Of a stretch of DNA of 51,184 nt, positions 13,162 through 47,880 are shown piece by piece. The DNA is from a virus. Taxonomy: Duplodnaviria > Heunggongvirae > Uroviricota > Caudoviricetes. Within the stretch, counting starts at the first letter, position 1, and every line of letters starts with the position of its first letter. Made by a program: the position numbers and the translations under genes. The stretch lies in IMG/VR virus record IMGVR_UViG_2585427745_000020, one strand, 5' to 3'. Below the pieces are notes generated by a model, which made no database searches, had not been told where the DNA came from, and worked only from the letters and a program-made list of their open reading frames with translations.

Positions 13162-14111
13162 TGCTCCGCAATGATTTTGATGGTTGTGGCAGTAAACGCC
13201 GCCCCATTTGACTGAATGGTTAACGTACTGCCATTTGTGGCAAGAAAGCCGTCTTTATCCACGCTGAAGAACGTAGCTAACAGGATGTTATCGGTTGTTG
13301 TCGCCGAGTTGCGACTGCTTACCAGTGTGTCAGGAACAGATCCGGAAAAGGTTAGCTGCATTGACCTGTTTGAGGTTCCGCTTGGCCACGTCCCGACAAT
13401 CGACAGCTTGAAGAACAGGGTTTTGTTCTCGTTGAACACAACCATCTTGTTGTTAACGGTGTCGAAGAATGGTGCCAACGTGCCTGATGACGGCGTGAGC
13501 GTTTTCAGCAGGCTAACAAGGTTGGTAGGCGCTGTCGGAATTGTTACAGATACTCCTGAGTAAACAACCTCTGATTTCTTGCGCGTGGTGGCATACTCAA
13601 GCGCAGATATTCTTGTTGAGTGATCACCAACTGTGCTTTGTAGCGTCGAAATACTTCCCTCTGCCGCTGTGAGCCTGGTATCAAGTGCGTCGATATCGGT
13701 TGTATTCTGAGTTATTCGCGCATCATGGTTTGCTAACTCAGATTCATTGGCAGCAATTCGCGTCTCGTGATCAGCCAGCTCTGTTTCGGCAGCCGTAATC
13801 CGTGTTTCATGATCTGCAAGAGTGCTTTCCGCTGCTGCGATTCTATGCTCATGATTGACGAGAGTTGCTTCAGCAGCAGCAATTCTGGATTCATGGTCTG
13901 CAAGGGTGACATCCTGCTCATCATTCTTCACCTGTGCATCATAAGCCCCCTTCCCTGCTTCGTTGGCCTTGTTAGCCACATTACCAACATCAGTACCCTG
14001 TGCAATAACGTACAGCAGATATGACTGCGAGAAGATATTGCGTGGAAGGACTGATGTGTCGAGTCGTGTAGCCTGAATGATTACCGGCTCATTGAGATTC
14101 GAATCAGCCAT
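13158..14111 (-). CDS. Tail needle (P22 gp26-like) with C-terminal knob
   Basis: 317 aa; N-terminus [43 protein letters not shown] matches gp26; ADHETRI heptad repeats; extra C-terminal domain as in Sf6. Confidence 0.85.
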
Positions 14112-15529
14112 TACTCAATCCTTATCTGGCAGCCTGACAGAGTGACAGGTGACTTCGTGATAACGCGCAATTTGAAGCCGACATTTTTCCTGATGCGCCC
14201 GACTCGCTTCCACAAAACACGTTTGTCGTAAACGAAAGGTTCATTCTGCTCAATCATCTGCTCACGACCATAATTTATGCCGTCAGTGGTTGCAGAGAGG
14301 AACAGGCGGTCGGCGTACTGCGCAACTCCAGTTGACGATTCAACTTCAAGGTCGAAAACTCTGGCGTTATCCGCTTTGAACAACGGAGTAAACAGCAGGT
14401 GTTCCTGCTGCTTGTCGTACTGGCTGCTGATATCGAACTGCAATTTCCCGGTCACGGATTCCAGCTTATCGCCGCACGTTATCTGATTTCCTTCGTAAAT
14501 GAAGTCAATAGCGCGGTACGCATCGTCATATAAGCCTGTTTTCAGCACACACCATTGTGGGCCATTGGCGCTTGAAGATGCGTCGTACACCAGAACATGG
14601 CGCGGCAGGTGAATAATCAGCAACTCATGAGCATCAAACCGCAACGATTCCATCACGCCATCAGCCAGTTCATCAGCAGTGTAGGAGCGGAGGATTTTCT
14701 CAATGCTCGCGCTGGCGATTGGTGATACCTGACCGGAGCCGATGATGTATACAGACGGCGCACCTGTTGCCGGATTGCTGATGAACGCATAAGAATCAGC
14801 GAATGGTGTTTTGCAGTAAGTCCCGGCAATACCTTTCTGCACCATCAGCGATGGCTGTGCGACATACAAAGCGGCACCAACGGTGGTTTCCCCCGTCAGG
14901 GAGAAATATTCAATCGTCGATGAGCCAAAGCAGACGATGAAGTCTCGCCATGTTCCGATGCCGATGATGCCGTCAGGCTGTGATTCTGCCCGATATTGTG
15001 CGCTGTATCGGTCAGGATGCGATTCGTCTCCAAGGTCAGTGATAAACCATGAATCGGTGCCGTCTTTTGACCACGCATAACGGCCACGTAAGCGCGTAAT
15101 GTCGCGGACTGAGCCTAACTCGTACTGTGTGAATCCGCTGTCTGTAGGCCAGTTTGAGACGGTTTTAACCGTGCCATCATAGCGATACTCGACCAGTTGA
15201 CCATTAACGCCTACCGCCTGTGATGTCCGACCATGCGCCATTGATACGCGACCACTTCCGGCAACATCACCGACTTCACTTTCTCCTTTGTAGAGCTTGC
15301 CACCACAGACACGATAAACAGCATTCTGCGCCATGTTGTACTCGACTCCGCGCGATACACCGTTCACATCAGAACGTTTGGTAATGCCCGGGAATGAGCG
15401 AAGATATCCGCTGCTGTTCAGGATTTCTTTGGGTGTAGCCAACATATTCACTGGCAGATAGTCGATATAGTCGGCGTTTCGAAAGTCTTTGCCGACACCT
15501 TTCATAAGCGGAAGTTGCTGAATCGGCAT
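14111..15529 (-). CDS. Tail accessory factor gp10
   Basis: 472 aa; [49 protein letters not shown]... near-identical to P22 gp10. Confidence 0.9.
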
Positions 15530-15538
15530 TTATTCACC

Positions 15539-16000
15539 TCACGTACTCGGATCATCTTTCTCGATGTAAAACCGATTCCACGTAAACGCGCTTTTGTTAC
15601 CACTACCGCGAGGCATGTCATTTCGCCGCTCAAGTGGTGGTATTTTGGTTAAAGCGATACAGATTGTTTGATATGCACTGTCAGCAGCGGTAAGGAGAGC
15701 GTCTGACGGCTGAATGACGTTATCCATGCACACTTGCACAGCGAGTTTCAAAGCGACGCCATCATTTGCCCATGCAGGGATACCTGAGTCATCGTCTGGT
15801 AACGGCATGATGCCGTTTTCTGTATCAGCAAACTGATACCCAAGCTCGATACCTTTAGCCTGCCATGCTGCCATCATGTCTTCGAGGTCATTAATGGCAT
15901 CTTCAATCGCCTGAGGGTCAGCATCTGTCAACGTGGCATTGGAATACAGCCCGGCTTTTCGTAAAGCCTTTAGAACGAGATCACCCTTCGTTTTCGCCAT
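15539..16000 (-). CDS. Tail accessory factor gp4
   Basis: 153 aa; MAKTKGDLVLKALRKAG...TLTDADPQAIEDAINDLEDMMAAW resembles P22 gp4. Confidence 0.8.
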   Translation of the reverse strand: MAKTKGDLVLKALRKAGLYSNATLTDADPQAIEDAINDLEDMMAAWQAKGIELGYQFADTENGIMPLPDDDSGIPAWANDGVALKLAVQVCMDNVIQPSDALLTAADSAYQTICIALTKIPPLERRNDMPRGSGNKSAFTWNRFYIEKDDPST

Positions 16001-23091: not shown

Positions 23092-23334
23092 TCAAGGATG
23101 ACGTCCAAATACGTTAATCTTCTCGCGAACGCTCTCACTACACATTCGCTCTACAATTCGCCAAACAGCCTTTTCAGGTAAAAATTTTGGCGCTAGTGCT
23201 GAAATAGCACGCCACAGACCTCGACTAAGCGAGCACGCTGTGCTACCGAAACTAAAGATGGCGAACGAAATAGACGTGATAAACGCCCAGCAACCAGAGA
23301 GAAAAGTTGAGATGCGGTGATAAAGCTTAGTCAT
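23092..23334 (-). CDS. Hypothetical small membrane protein
   Basis: 80 aa with hydrophobic N-terminal half; between lysis and packaging genes; weak. Confidence 0.3.
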   Translation of the reverse strand: MTKLYHRISTFLSGCWAFITSISFAIFSFGSTACSLSRGLWRAISALAPKFLPEKAVWRIVERMCSESVREKINVFGRHP

Positions 23335-23423
23335 GTATTGCTCCTGTTTTTTTTGGTTTTCATCGCCCGATCATTTCAGGCATTGCGTCCTGATGTATTC
23401 CTGCAGGTAGTTAACCTGCGCGG

Positions 23424-23807
23424 TTATCCTGTCGATTCCACTTCGGAGACGGTAATAATTGAGTTCAGCATCTGCTGTAAGTCTTGGGCTTTCTCCATCG
23501 CCCATGTGCTGGCTCCGGTCGTTGACTTTGCACAGGTGGCGGCGACTTGCAGGCGCTTACGACCAGCAGAAACATCAGCACGGAGACTTTCGATAGTCGC
23601 GTTAGCATCAGCAAGCTCCTTTGTGTATCTGGCGTCAAGTTCTGCTACATCACGTTGACGCTTCTGCATATCAGCGATGATGGATATGGCTTTATCGCGC
23701 TGCTCTTTGTAGGTCATGGCGTTATCACGGTAATGATTAACAGCCCATGACAGGCAGACGATGATGCAGATAACCAGAGCGGAGATAATCGCGGTGACTC
23801 TGCTCAT
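23424..23807 (-). CDS. Rz: Rz i-spanin
   Basis: 127 aa; first about 30 residues identical to lambda Rz ([30 protein letters not shown]), then diverges. Confidence 0.85.
23465..23608 (-). CDS. Rz1: Rz1-like o-spanin lipoprotein embedded in Rz (+1 frame)
   Basis: 47 aa [27 protein letters not shown]...; lipobox VSAC and Pro-rich mature part; nested in Rz. Confidence 0.5.
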
Positions 23808-24280
23808 ACCTCAATCTCTCTGACCGTTCCGCCTGCTTCTTTGAATTTTGCAATCAGGCTGTCAGCCTTATGCTCGAACTGACCATAACCAGCCCCCGGA
23901 AGTGAAGCCCAGATATTGCTGCAACGGTCGATAGCCTGACGGATATCACCGCGATCAATCATCGGTAAAGCGCCACGCTCTTTAATCTGTTGCAGTGCCA
24001 CAGCGTCCTGGCTTTTCGGAGAGAAGTCTTTCAGGCCAAGCTGCTTACGATAGGCATCCCACCAACGGGAAAGAAGCTGGTAACGGCCTGCAGCTGTTGA
24101 TTTGAGTTTGGGGTTTAGCGTGACAAGTTTGCGAGGGTGATCTGAGTAATCAGTGAATAGCTCTCCGCCTACAATGACGTCATAACCATGATTTCTGGTT
24201 TTCTGCCGTCCGTTATCAGTTCCCTCTGACCACGCCAGCATATCGAGGAACGCCTTACGTTGATTATTGATTTCCACCAT
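23804..24280 (-). CDS. R: Endolysin (lambda R-type transglycosylase)
   Basis: 158 aa; [49 protein letters not shown]... matches lambda R. Confidence 0.9.
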
Positions 24281-24587
24281 CTTCTACTCCGGCTTTTTTA
24301 GCAGCGAAGCGTTTGATAAGCGAACCAATCGAGTCAGTACCGATGTAGCCGATGAACACGCTCGTTATATAAGCGAGATTGCTACTTAGTCCGGCGAAGT
24401 CGAGAAGGTCACGAATGAACCAGGCGATAATGGCGCACATCGTTGCGTCGATTACTGTTTTTGTAAACGCACCGCCATTATATCTGCCGCGAAGGTACGC
24501 CATTGCAAACGCAAGGATTGCCCCGATGCCTTGTTCCTTTGCCGCGAGAATGGCGGCTAACAGGTCATGTTTTTCTGGCATCTTCAT
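24264..24587 (-). CDS. S: Holin (lambda S, dual start)
   Basis: 107 aa; [41 protein letters not shown]... matches lambda S107/S105. Confidence 0.9.
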
Positions 24588-25035
24588 GTCTTACCCCCAA
24601 TAAGGGGATTTGCTCTATTTAATTAGGAATAAGGTCGATTACTGATAGAACAAATCCAGGCTACTGTGTTTAGTAATCAGATTTGTTCGTGACCGATATG
24701 CACGGGCAAAACGGCAGGATGTTGTTAGCGCAACCTCTTGCCACCCGCTTTCACGAAGGTCATGTGTAGAAGGCCGCAGCGTAACTATCACTGATGAATT
24801 CAGGATAGCCAGTGGCTACGGCTCAGTTTGGGTTGTGGCGGCCGGAATCGAACCGGCTTCCATCGGTGCGCTGCCGATTGCAGTACGCGCGGCGGTCAGC
24901 TACATGACTAGTATTTTCACTGTCGCCTATCTGCTAGCTCGCCATTGAGCTTCACCACAACGATAAGAGCACTGCGCGGCACCTTTCACCAATTCCGCGA
25001 GGTCTGCGGGTTCAATGCTCTTACCTGTTGCACAG

Positions 25036-25098
25036 ATATAAAAAATCCCGAAACCGTTATGCAGGCTCTAACTATTACCTGCGAACTGTTTCGGGATT
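25036..25098 (-). terminator. tR'-like terminator of the late leader
   Basis: Arms AATCCCGAAAC (25044-25054) and GTTTCGGGATT (25088-25098) form a long stem-loop followed on the minus strand by UUUUUUAU; matches the lambda late leader. Confidence 0.6.
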
Positions 25099-25231
25099 GC
25101 ATTTTGCAGACCTCTCAGCCTGCGATGGTTGGAGTTCCAGACGATACGTCGAAGTGACCAACTAGGCGGAATCGGTAGTAAGCGCCGCCTCTTTTTATCT
25201 CACTACCACAACGAGCGAATTAACCCATCAT
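25099..25231 (-). ncRNA. 6S-like short late leader transcript from pR' to tR' (qut region)
   Basis: Region between the pR' start and the tR' hairpin (terminator annotated separately at 25036-25098); sequence follows the lambda late leader. Confidence 0.4.
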
Positions 25232-25267
25232 TGGGTCAAATTTACCCAACTTTATTCAAAAAGTCAA
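25231..25267 (-). promoter_or_regulatory. Late promoter pR' (Q-dependent antitermination target)
   Basis: Minus-strand -35 TTGACT (25262-25267), 17-nt spacer, -10 TAAATT (25239-25244), directly downstream of Q. Confidence 0.75.
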
Positions 25268-25309
25268 TATCATGCCGTTAATATGTTGCCATCCGTGGCA
25301 ATCATGCTG

Positions 25310-25933
25310 CTAACGTGTGACCGCATTCAAAATGTTGTCTGCGATTGACTCTTCTTTGTGGCATTGCACCACCAGAGCGTCATACAGCGGCTTAACAGTG
25401 CGTGACCAGGTGGGTTGGGTAAGGTTTGGGATTAGCATCGTTACAGCGCGATATGCGGCGCTTGCTGGCATCCTGGAATAGCCGACGCCTTTGCATCTTC
25501 CGCACTCTTTCTCGACAACTCTCCCCCACTGCTCTGTTTTGGCAATATCAACGGCCCGGCCAGTACCGTGGCAATCTCTGCATCTTGCGCCCGGTGTCGC
25601 GGCACTACGGCAATAATCCGCATAAGCGAATGTTGCGAGCACTTGCAGCACCTTTGCCTTAGTATTTCCTTCGAGCTTTGCCACACCACGGTATTTCCCC
25701 GATACCTTGTGTGCAAATTGCATCAGATAGTTGATAGCCTTTTGTTTGTCGTTCTGGCTGAGTTCATGCTTACCACAGAATGCAGCCATTCCGAATCCGG
25801 CTTGTGATTGCGCCATCCCCATAGCAGCCATCACATCAGTACCGGAAAGAGAGTCAGAAGCCGTAGCCCGTGGTGAGTCGCTCATCATCGGGCTTTTTGG
25901 CGAATGAAATTTAGCTACGCTTTCGAGTCTCAT
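25310..25933 (-). CDS. Q: Late antiterminator Q
   Basis: 207 aa; [60 protein letters not shown]... essentially lambda Q. Confidence 0.95.
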
Positions 25934-45211: not shown

Positions 45212-47880
45212 CAATACAGACGGTTACGCAGGTTTCAGCCGCCGCACGGGGGAAATGGCCCGTTATTCTGCAGATGCTGCGTATTGATGTACCTGAAAAC
45301 GGCAGGCACGGTCCCTGCCCGAAATGTGGGGGCAAGGATCGTTTTCGCCTTGATGACCTTGACGGGCGCGGGACGTGGATCTGCAGCCAGTGTGGCAATG
45401 GTGACGGTCTGGATCTGGTTAAGCTCGTAACCGGTTACAGCGTCAGAAAGGCTGCGCAGGAGGTGGCGCAGGTGCTTAATGTGCCGGATATGCAGGAACT
45501 GCCTGTTAAGCCTGCCAGACAAAAAGCCCCTAAACGCGACATGGGTCTTACCGTGGCGGCGCTGATGAAAGAGAGCCACACGGGAGAAAGCGCCTATCTG
45601 ACAGGAAAAGGGTTCGCCGGATACCCGGCCTCTCTGACCGGAAGCGTACAGCATATCAGCGGTAAGGATTTTCCTGCCGGTTCCCTGCTGTTACCACTCA
45701 CGACCAACACCGGAGCCGTGACCGGTGCACAGCTTATCGCCCCGACGGGTGAAAAAAGCATACTGCCCGGCAGCACGATGAAAGGCGCGTTTGTGTCGCT
45801 CAGCCCGTTACCGTCTGAACCACCGATACAGGTGGTGATTACCGAAGGTTACGCTACGGCGCTGACGGTAAGCCAGCTCACTGCCGGATGCGTAGTGGCT
45901 GCCATATCTGCGGGCAACCTGCCCAATGTGGCGCAGTCGCTGCGGGCACGCTGGCCTGAGGTAAAAATTATCATCGCCGGTGATAACGATTTTCAGGACG
46001 GGGGTGAGAATCCCGGCAGAGCCTTTGCTGAACGGGCGGCAAAAGCTGTTGGCGGCTGGATGACGCTGCCACCAGGAGAGATTAAGGCTGACTGGAATGA
46101 CTTTCATCGGGAGCACGGTATTACCCGTGCCCGTGAAGCCTTTCGCAACGGTCTGGTACTGTGCGGGGAAAGCCGCACGCAACTGCCGCACGGGTTCCGT
46201 CTTACCCAGGAATATCTCTGGTATGAAAAGCAGGTACAGCGCAACGGTGAGACGGAGATCCAGAACGTCAAAATATGCAGCCCGCTGCGCGTGACGGCAA
46301 TCACCTGCGATGCCGATGGCGGTAACTTCGGACGACTGCTGGAATGGGAAGATACGTGGGGTGAGTGTCGCCGCTGGGCGATGCCGATGGAAATGCTGAG
46401 CGGCAGTGGTGAGGAACTGCGCCGGGTACTGCTGGTTAACGGGCTGTCTTATATCAGCACCACCGGTGAGGCACGCGCACGCCTGATGGAATATATCTCA
46501 CTGTGTAAACCGGAACGCCGCGTGACCTGCGTCAGTCGTACTGGCTGGCATGGTCAGGTTTACGTCCTGCAGGATGAGGTCAGCGGTGAAGGTGCAGAGG
46601 GTGTCATTCTCCAGACCACTTCCGTGCAGGGGCGTGATTTCCGCGTGTCGGGCACAACAGAGGAATGGCGGGAGCATGTATCCCGCTACTGTACCGGCAA
46701 CTCCCGCGTGGCATTTGCTGTCAGCCTGGCCTTTGCTGCACCACTGTTACGGCTGGTTGGTATGGACGGCGGCGGCTACCACCTCAAAGGGGAATCGACA
46801 GACGGTAAGACCACCACCATGAAAGCAGCAACCTCCGTCTGCGGCGGGCCTGACTACTGGCAGACATGGCGGGCCACCGGCAACGCGCTGGAGGGATGCG
46901 CCAGCCGCCGCAACGATGCCGCCATGATGCTTGATGAGATCCGGGAAGTTGACGGACGCGAGGCAGGCAATATCGCCTACATGCTGGCAAACGGTCAGGG
47001 CAAGGGCCGTGCCGGTACGGACGGTGAGCTGCGTACCCGTAAGCAGTGGCGCCTGTTGTTCTTTTCAACTGGCGAGTTGTCTCTGACCGAACATGCGGCA
47101 AAGGCCGGTGAGCGTACTTTTGCCGGGATGGAAGTCAGGATGATCCAGATCCCCAGTGATTCCGGGAAGTTTGGCGTTTTTGAGGAGCTGCACGGCTTCG
47201 ACAGCGGCAAGGCTCTGGCAGAGCATCTTGAATGGGCCACGTCCTGCTACTACGGTTCGCCGTTCCGGGAGTGGCTGAAAGCACTGACCGCTGATCTTAA
47301 CGGACTAACGGCACAGGCAAAATCGCTGATGAAGGAATATGCTGCCGCCCTGACTCCGAAAGATGCAGGCAATCAGGTGGGCCGGGCTGTGAACCGCTTT
47401 GCACTGGTGGCGATGGCAGGTGAACTGGCAACCCGTCTGGGTATCACCGGCTGGCCTGAGGGTGAAGCACTGCGGGCAACCCGCGTCTGCCTGAACGCAT
47501 GGCTGAAAGATCGCGGGCACACCGCCAATCAGGAAGATATCGCCGCACTGGAGCAGGTTCGCAGTTTCTTTACCGCGAATCAGTACAGCCGCTTTGCAGA
47601 CTGGTATGACGAGCGCAACCGCCCCGGCAATATGGTGGGCTGGCGAAGGGTGGAGAAAGGCAGTACCGCGCAGGGCACGGAAGCTGTCACTACGTTCTAT
47701 GTCATGCCGTCCGGCTGGAAAGAAATCTGCAGGGGATTTGACCCGCGCAAGGTGGCGCGTCTGTGCGCAGATCGTGGATACCTGCTGCCCTCCACTGATG
47801 GCAAACTCCAGACAACCATTCGCCCGCCAGAGATGAATCCCCGCAGGCTCTATGTCTTCAACAGCGAGGTGCCGGGTTAA
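45208..47880 (+). CDS. Primase-helicase (P4 alpha-like: zinc ribbon, TOPRIM, D5-type NTPase)
   Basis: 890 aa; N-terminal CPKCGG...CSQCG zinc-binding motif; Walker A-like GESTDGKTT; typical satellite replicase architecture. Confidence 0.9.
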   Translation: MTIQTVTQVSAAARGKWPVILQMLRIDVPENGRHGPCPKCGGKDRFRLDDLDGRGTWICSQCGNGDGLDLVKLVTGYSVRKAAQEVAQVLNVPDMQELPVKPARQKAPKRDMGLTVAALMKESHTGESAYLTGKGFAGYPASLTGSVQHISGKDFPAGSLLLPLTTNTGAVTGAQLIAPTGEKSILPGSTMKGAFVSLSPLPSEPPIQVVITEGYATALTVSQLTAGCVVAAISAGNLPNVAQSLRARWPEVKIIIAGDNDFQDGGENPGRAFAERAAKAVGGWMTLPPGEIKADWNDFHREHGITRAREAFRNGLVLCGESRTQLPHGFRLTQEYLWYEKQVQRNGETEIQNVKICSPLRVTAITCDADGGNFGRLLEWEDTWGECRRWAMPMEMLSGSGEELRRVLLVNGLSYISTTGEARARLMEYISLCKPERRVTCVSRTGWHGQVYVLQDEVSGEGAEGVILQTTSVQGRDFRVSGTTEEWREHVSRYCTGNSRVAFAVSLAFAAPLLRLVGMDGGGYHLKGESTDGKTTTMKAATSVCGGPDYWQTWRATGNALEGCASRRNDAAMMLDEIREVDGREAGNIAYMLANGQGKGRAGTDGELRTRKQWRLLFFSTGELSLTEHAAKAGERTFAGMEVRMIQIPSDSGKFGVFEELHGFDSGKALAEHLEWATSCYYGSPFREWLKALTADLNGLTAQAKSLMKEYAAALTPKDAGNQVGRAVNRFALVAMAGELATRLGITGWPEGEALRATRVCLNAWLKDRGHTANQEDIAALEQVRSFFTANQYSRFADWYDERNRPGNMVGWRRVEKGSTAQGTEAVTTFYVMPSGWKEICRGFDPRKVARLCADRGYLLPSTDGKLQTTIRPPEMNPRRLYVFNSEVPG

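Follow-up and report, generated by a model that had tools for sequence, protein, structure and literature searches.

A one-base deletion in the overlapping spanin genes Rz and Rz1 of a mosaic lambda-type lysis cassette in an Escherichia coli prophage

Organisation of the lysis cassette and its prophage

The stretch of DNA analysed here, referred to as the window, is a tailed-phage sequence of 51,184 nucleotides (IMG/VR record IMGVR_UViG_2585427745_000020; Caudoviricetes) that is 100% identical to JOSM01000224.1 (assembly GCA_000713695.1). It contains a lysis cassette on the minus strand, in the order Q, S, R and then Rz/Rz1 (Table 1), which belongs to a P22-like (Sf6-like) prophage located beside tRNA-Arg(CCT) in E. 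coli 2-222-05_S3_C1. The initial annotation of this region described S, R and Q as essentially those of lambda, and the protein identities given in Table 1 bear this out. The homologues of S in the HK140, Sf6 and HK75 records carry a holin annotation, and both the holin and the endolysin of the window look intact.

The gene that follows R was initially annotated as a 127-residue Rz with an embedded, Rz1-like lipoprotein. Both open reading frames (ORFs) are present as described. The ATG of the 127-aa ORF overlaps the R stop at 23804-23807 (the ORF starts four bases before the end of R), and its product has an N-terminal transmembrane anchor and a periplasmic part encoded directly after the endolysin gene, as expected of an i-spanin (Rz). 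Its residues 1-30 were said to be identical to those of lambda Rz, as indeed they are; 37 of the first 39 residues match (the exceptions are I31M and A35E), and the protein is divergent beyond this point and ends at 127 residues, vs. 153 in lambda Rz. The smaller ORF is embedded in the +1 frame of the larger one and encodes a lipoprotein signal peptide with a lipobox cysteine (LLVVSA/C), as expected of an o-spanin (Rz1); 14 mature residues follow, and then another 13 that are out of frame. That its 47-aa product is unlike lambda Rz1, as had been stated, holds as well.

Table 1. Coordinates of the lysis genes, the junction, the deletion and other features of the window
Feature	Position	Strand	Remarks
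Q	25310-25933	-	97.4% nt, 206/207 aa identical to lambda Q
Holin/antiholin gene S, lambda type, 107 aa	24264-24587	-	99.1% nt, 106/107 aa identical to lambda S
Endolysin gene R, lambda type, 158 aa	23804-24280	-	95.0% nt, 156/158 aa identical to lambda R
i-spanin gene Rz (HK97/Sf6 type), full extent	23371-23807	-	Pseudogene as it stands; 437 nt vs. 438
Rz 5' 100 nt (start codon, N-terminal transmembrane segment, periplasmic start)	23708-23807	-	99/100 nt identical to lambda
Mosaic junction, lambda-like to HK97/Sf6-type distal Rz/Rz1 module	23691-23707	.	Change point and alignment; 21-nt length difference at 23691
Rz1, full extent	23424-23608	-	Restored product 61 aa
1-nt deletion site (G on the coding strand), AGCAGCATGG to AGCACATGG	23506-23507	.	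Rz codon 101, Rz1 codon 35
127-aa ATG ORF (initially annotated as Rz)	23424-23807	-	Rz residues 1-100, junction residue, last 26 residues of Rz1
47-aa ORF (initially annotated as Rz1), truncated Rz1	23465-23608	-	+1 frame of Rz; ATG 23608, stop 23465
Orphan 44-aa ORF, Rz residues 102-145 (MGDGESPRL...TQCLK)	23371-23505	-	PF03245 profile 85-125, E = 5.6e-10
ORF matching phrog_18235 (unknown function)	7165-7764	+
YafO-like toxin	7749-8168	+	PF13957, E = 1e-11
Ant-like antirepressor	5406-6296
Tailspike, 901 aa	2600-5305	-	P22 head-binding domain and C-terminal Peptidase_S74 intramolecular-chaperone domain

Several features around the spanin genes were recorded in their own right. Within R, a patch at 24038-24127 has 88-93% identity (60-nt windows) to lambda, HK140, Sf6 and HK75, against 97-100% in the rest of the gene; the prophage of E. 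coli 23CRST047 has no difference from the window in this part, and 2013C-4991 has 10 between 24143 and 24047. The patch resembles a small mosaic segment or gene-conversion tract inside the gene. The spacer between Q and S (24588-25309) has 82% identity to lambda, with indels, and ARAGORN found no tRNA in it; in the prophage of 23CRST047, which is otherwise very similar, and in phage Sf6, unlike in the window, this spacer holds tRNA-Asn and tRNA-Thr. Immediately beyond Rz, at the site occupied by bor in lambda (there on the other strand), an 80-aa hydrophobic ORF (23092-23334, minus strand) matches phrog_34701 (unknown function, E = 1e-47) and HK140 gp68; Pfam gave no match for it, and the NCBI record does not call it.

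Elsewhere in the prophage, three plus-strand ORFs (7165-8613) lie on the opposite strand between the ejection-protein genes and the tailspike, in what is a moron region. Two of them are listed in Table 1 and the remaining one (8191-8613) gave no match; the group may form toxin-antitoxin or defence cargo. The tailspike also has a weak match to the end of an endosialidase catalytic domain. At the prophage edge, the tRNA-Arg(CCT) gene (1009-1083, plus strand) adjoins the element, and a 397-aa ORF (1209-2402, plus strand) gives a 96% alignment with intS, the integrase gene in the prophage of 23CRST047. In the latter prophage, a close relative, gp4 and gp10 are separated by a gene for an HNH endonuclease and a fragment of a 'packaged DNA stabilization protein' (locus L006, 29173-29898); in the window the gp4-like (15539-16000) and gp10-like (14111-15529) ORFs are adjacent, with neither of these between them. 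By a check of length only, the late-operon ORFs correspond to terminase (146 and 471 aa), portal (732 aa), scaffold (297 aa) and coat (417 aa), and by the same check more ORFs of morphogenesis size follow the coat ORF.

The mosaic junction within Rz

The initial annotation proposed that a sharp mosaic junction with lambda lies inside Rz, a proposal that uniform divergence across the lysis cassette would have contradicted. The minus strand of the window, from Q to past Rz, was aligned to lambda (NC_001416), and a single-change-point likelihood scan was run from S to the Rz stop. Divergence is not uniform, and the break is abrupt: the best single breakpoint is at window 23704 (support interval 23707-23691; twice the difference in log-likelihood is approximately 348), with a mismatch to lambda of 3.1% before the breakpoint and 46.6% after it. 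Past its first 100 nt, Rz has 53.7% nucleotide identity to lambda, and this distal part also contains length differences of 21 nt and 6 nt. The proposed junction is therefore found inside Rz, at codons 31-39. This position is upstream of the Rz1 start (23608), so that all of Rz1 and practically the entire periplasmic part of Rz belong to the exchanged distal module.

The lambda genes (Rz, NC_001416 45966-46427; Rz1, 46186-46368) share with those of the window their embedded architecture, their place after near-identical S and R genes and their Pfam families, and Rz residues 1-30, with the transmembrane anchor among them, are identical. The two differ from codons 31-39 on, where nucleotide identity is approximately 54%; in addition, intact Rz of the HK97 type is 8 residues shorter than lambda Rz, and Rz1 of the HK97 type belongs to a different o-spanin family from lambda Rz1 and has no second cysteine. 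In the classification of Kongari et al. (2018; PMC6139136), Rz of HK97, HK140, HK75, Sf6 and P22 is placed in the lambda i-spanin family (83 members), while the matching Rz1 forms a separate 'HK97' o-spanin family (32 members), as opposed to the 'Lambda' family (28 members).

The recombinant arrangement is by no means particular to this prophage. The whole region of 1.3 kb matches many sequenced phages at 97-98.5%, among them HK140, N7, IME10, HK446, HK75, HK97, mEpX1, mEpX2 and Sf6; there, R is followed by a gene for a 145-aa Rz in which a 61-aa Rz1 is embedded. HK140, Sf6, HK75 and HK97 have the same allele as the window, with approximately 97-98% nucleotide identity across S-R-Rz, Rz1 embedded in the +1 frame and the same junction with lambda; where they differ from it is that both of their genes are intact, whereas the window lacks one G at 23507/23506 and has neither gene intact. 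The junction is common to dozens of sequenced phages, and an 80-nt segment of the HK97-type allele occurs in 1,797 of 5,426 complete E. coli genomes.

It has also been annotated before. The Sf6 RefSeq record carries, inside Rz, a feature labelled 'bsq7; boundary sequence' (locus L002, 2363-2410), which maps to window 23738-23691 with no indels between Sf6 and the window and encloses the change point at 23707-23691, the meaning of bsq7 being taken here from the feature label of the Sf6 record. The boundary-sequence model of lambdoid mosaicism has been attributed, in PMC3233612, to Clark et al. (2001), and an abrupt change of identity at a position shared with other phages is what is found in the window. 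The Sf6 boundary sequence lies in the same place as the window junction, with no difference at the junction itself. The junction is, in short, old, common and already annotated, and is no new event in the phage of the window.

Where such exchanges occur was examined in 87 IMG/VR loci that have the HK97-type distal allele and enough upstream sequence, by scoring the start of their homology to the window cassette. Of the 87 loci, 45 have the whole cassette in common, with homology that starts upstream of S; in 4 it starts where S meets R, in 29 at the R/Rz boundary (23806-23814) and in the other 9 inside the 5' part of Rz (23678-23787). Its end is far less variable, falling at 23370-23377 in 82 of the 87 loci, 23370 being one base beyond the Rz stop. 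Exchange points thus cluster at gene boundaries and at the conserved Rz 5' end, and over window 23370-24650 the S-R-Rz cassette exchanges as blocks. Among the 110 IMG/VR loci with the whole region, an open Rz frame of 145 codons is kept in 108, and Rz1 with an ATG start is found in 109, with 61 residues in 102 loci and 58 in 7.

The first step in the history of the locus is thus very probably an old and widespread module exchange, in which the segment from S through R to the 5' end of Rz is of the lambda type and the sequence from Rz codons 31-39 on is of the HK97/HK140/Sf6/HK75 type. The junction falls in a patch of approximately 100 nt at the 5' end of Rz that is common to both allele types. 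This patch may serve as a site of homologous exchange, as in the boundary-sequence model, and exchange within it would keep together the interacting periplasmic parts of both spanin subunits.

The one-base deletion and the frames of Rz and Rz1

The junction accounts for where the window diverges from lambda, and a different event concerns how its spanin genes end. In an alignment with HK140, Sf6 and HK75, to which the window is otherwise approximately 97-98% identical, there is a single gap column (AGCAGCA to AGCACA): the site reads CCAGCAGCATGG in HK140 and Sf6, CCAGCGGCATGG in HK75 and CCAGCACATGG in the window. The missing G is also present in E. coli 23CRST047 and 2013C-4991, the closest complete genomes, both of which annotate an intact 145-aa 'lysis protein' (WP_106912627.1), and the gap is the only difference between the window and 23CRST047 over window 24719-23095 (approximately 1.6 kb, comprising S, R and Rz/Rz1).

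Since Rz1 lies in the +1 frame inside Rz, one lost base shifts both genes. In Rz, codon 101 changes from AGC to ACA and reading then follows the Rz1 frame to the Rz1 stop (23424-23426), which yields a chimera from which the last 45 residues of Rz, and with them its second conserved cysteine, are missing. Rz1, in turn, is correct to Ala34; its authentic sequence ends there, two residues ahead of the Trp aligned with W38 of lambda Rz1, and 13 extra residues in the third frame lead to its stop at 23465 (47 aa in total). The missing end of Rz is still found in the DNA as an orphan ORF that aligns with the distal coiled-coil region and the C-terminal cysteine of lambda Rz (Table 1). As a consequence of the shift, the C-terminus of Rz would be left untranslated, or would be made as a 44-aa peptide without a signal sequence. 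The odd C-terminal halves of both ORFs arise because the single-base deletion swaps the overlapping reading frames.

Adding a G after 23507 gives a 145-aa Rz that is approximately 97-98% identical to the Rz of HK140, Sf6 and HK75 (3-4 differences) and a 61-aa Rz1 with a single difference each from the Rz1 of HK75 (terminal G vs. R) and that of Sf6 (S18N). The Pfam profiles follow the same pattern. The restored Rz matches PF03245 over its full length (positions 11-125, 125 bits) and the restored Rz1 matches PF06085 over its full length (72.5 bits). As it stands, the 127-aa ORF has PF03245 profile positions 11-82 at residues 32-104 and PF06085 profile positions 18-41 at residues 101-124 (both families are also the precomputed ones for this product), and the 47-aa ORF has only PF06085 profile positions 1-17, at 16.9 bits vs. 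a cut-off of 27.9 bits. The periplasmic domain of the i-spanin is therefore no longer held in one frame, with only positions 11-82 of the 126 of PF03245 in frame, and the o-spanin has no complete mature segment (approximately 41 residues) above the Pfam cut-off, with positions 18-41 fused to Rz.

Judged from these translations and profiles, the Rz of the window is an i-spanin by descent and a pseudogene as it stands. The two ORFs of the initial annotation, although located exactly where they had been placed, are not intact genes and are products of the 1-nt deletion. Nor does recombination account for the shortfall of 26 residues (127 vs. 153 aa) or for the odd Rz1: 8 of the residues reflect the normal length of the HK97-type allele, and the other 18 are due to the frameshift.

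Frequency of the deletion, other readings and predicted loss of function

The deletion is rare, and the allele in which it occurs is common. The exact 127-aa protein occurs on only 2 public contigs, as KDX90317.1 (E. coli 2-222-05_S3_C1) and KEN89309.1 (2-222-05_S3_C3), whose strain names suggest that they are sibling colonies of one sample. These contigs differ in size (320,373 and 322,768 bp), which indicates two separate assemblies. The restored Rz, on the other hand, is found exactly on 346 public contigs, and the restored Rz1 on 219. In IMG/VR, the deleted 34-mer is present in 1 contig, the window itself (UViG_2606217117_000018), vs. at least 120 contigs with the intact 35-mer. No copy of the deleted version was found in JGI metagenome contigs or among species-representative genomes (one per species), and among the 1,803 complete E. 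coli records with the allele (1,797 genomes) it was in no case the exact best match, the best being 98.8%, i.e., one gap.

As the call was made from draft assemblies, a single-base indel of this kind could in principle have arisen as an error of sequencing or assembly, the true prophage having intact Rz and Rz1. The identity of the restored sequence to a very common allele would fit such an error, and so would a sequencing platform and pipeline shared by both assemblies, which is conceivable. Against it, an identical 127-aa product was obtained from two separately assembled isolates, and the site (CAGCAGCATG) is not a homopolymer, the usual context of indel errors; an artefact is accordingly considered unlikely. 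On these sequence comparisons, it is concluded that the deletion is a real, very recent and clonally restricted mutation.

If the base is truly missing, it may still be asked whether the genes are broken. A short, divergent Rz with an unusual Rz1 could represent a pair of intact genes derived from recombination, that is, a new and shorter spanin allele, and the real lambda junction at Rz codons 31-39 and the open 127-aa ORF with its authentic Rz N-terminus agree with this. However, the same recombinant in HK140, Sf6, HK75 and 23CRST047 encodes 145 aa and a 61-aa Rz1, the window is one missing base away from that 145-aa allele, the C-terminus of the 127-aa product is Rz1 sequence while the true Rz C-terminus lies in another frame, and the product is known from two assemblies only. 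Translation of the three minus-strand frames and alignment with relatives ruled out the 127-aa ORF as a genuine short allele, and this reading is regarded as extremely improbable. Even less probable, to the point of being negligible, is a compensation of the frameshift during expression, through transcriptional slippage or programmed -1 ribosomal frameshifting, that would still yield full-length Rz. A -1 shift is indeed what rejoining the two parts of Rz would need, but the two genes could not both be rescued by one such shift, nowhere else is the arrangement conserved (all relatives carry the unshifted sequence), and from the deletion to where the 127-aa ORF stops, the sequence continuing as AGC ACA TGG GCG ATG GAG AAA GCC ..., reading by eye revealed no slippery heptamer of the X XXY YYZ form and no homopolymer run.

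Two further possibilities concern the chimera as a protein. A unimolecular spanin (the T1 gp11 type) combines an N-terminal lipoprotein signal with a transmembrane domain at the C-terminus in one chain (PMC5295617, PMC6139136). This was rejected for the chimera, which has an N-terminal transmembrane segment, no N-terminal lipobox and a soluble Rz1 tail at its C-terminus. The chimera, in which the Rz membrane anchor and first coiled-coil region are joined to the C-terminal tail of Rz1, might also be a dominant-negative decoy for HK97-type Rz from co-resident or superinfecting lambdoid phages, whose C-terminal domain it would bind; if this were true, outer-membrane disruption would be blocked, the host would benefit, and the frameshift would be a selected domestication step instead of neutral decay, but such a role is speculative and very unlikely.

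The second step in the history of the locus is then very probably a recent, private loss of one G between 23507 and 23506 that breaks both spanin genes. The consequences of such a loss can be anticipated from the genetics of the lambda spanins. Lambda Rz nonsense mutations at 34 periplasmic positions are lysis-defective, even when the stops are at codons 151 and 152, and nonsense alleles of lambda Rz1 up to W46 are defective, truncations being tolerated only from position 55 onward (PMC5295617). The standard lambda null alleles are RzQ100am and Rz1W38am (Cahill et al. 2017, PMC5295617), and the truncations of the window (Rz after residue 100, Rz1 after residue 34) fall at nearly the same points. 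There are differences as well: RzQ100am and Rz1W38am are laboratory alleles of lambda, whereas in the window one natural deletion produces both truncations, with out-of-frame tails and in a spanin pair of the HK97 type. By alignment with lambda, the C-terminal cysteine and the second coiled-coil region are among what Rz loses after residue 100. Because Rz is lost after residue 100 and Rz1 after residue 34, both spanin subunits of the window are predicted to be null, a prediction that carries lambda allele data over to HK97-type spanins, whose Rz1 differs from that of lambda and belongs to a separate o-spanin family, its helical content being predicted to reach as much as 47% (PMC6139136).

In lambda, the knockout of either spanin gene results in an absolute lysis defect, with fragile spherical cells whose outer membrane is intact (PMC6139136). 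After induction of the prophage of the window, the holin and the endolysin would be expected, by analogy with lambda genetics, to act as usual and outer-membrane disruption to fail; the cells would end as fragile spheres, and the release of phage would depend on shear or on other damage to the outer membrane.

Taken together, a known module exchange and a private one-base deletion very probably explain the locus, with both spanin subunits predicted to be null. The locus exemplifies the ordinary decay of prophages, here in a gene pair already known, and its significance is largely confined to annotation, where it illustrates that one indel in an embedded gene pair knocks out both genes and that the resulting ORFs resemble a shorter, divergent allele that can mislead gene callers and sequence-only readers (the NCBI name for the 127-aa product is 'bacteriophage lysis family protein'). 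What the counts across IMG/VR loci add is that the conserved 5' end of Rz and the gene boundaries of S-R-Rz are recurrent exchange points; the locus further shows that the distal module exchanged includes Rz1 along with the whole periplasmic part of Rz.
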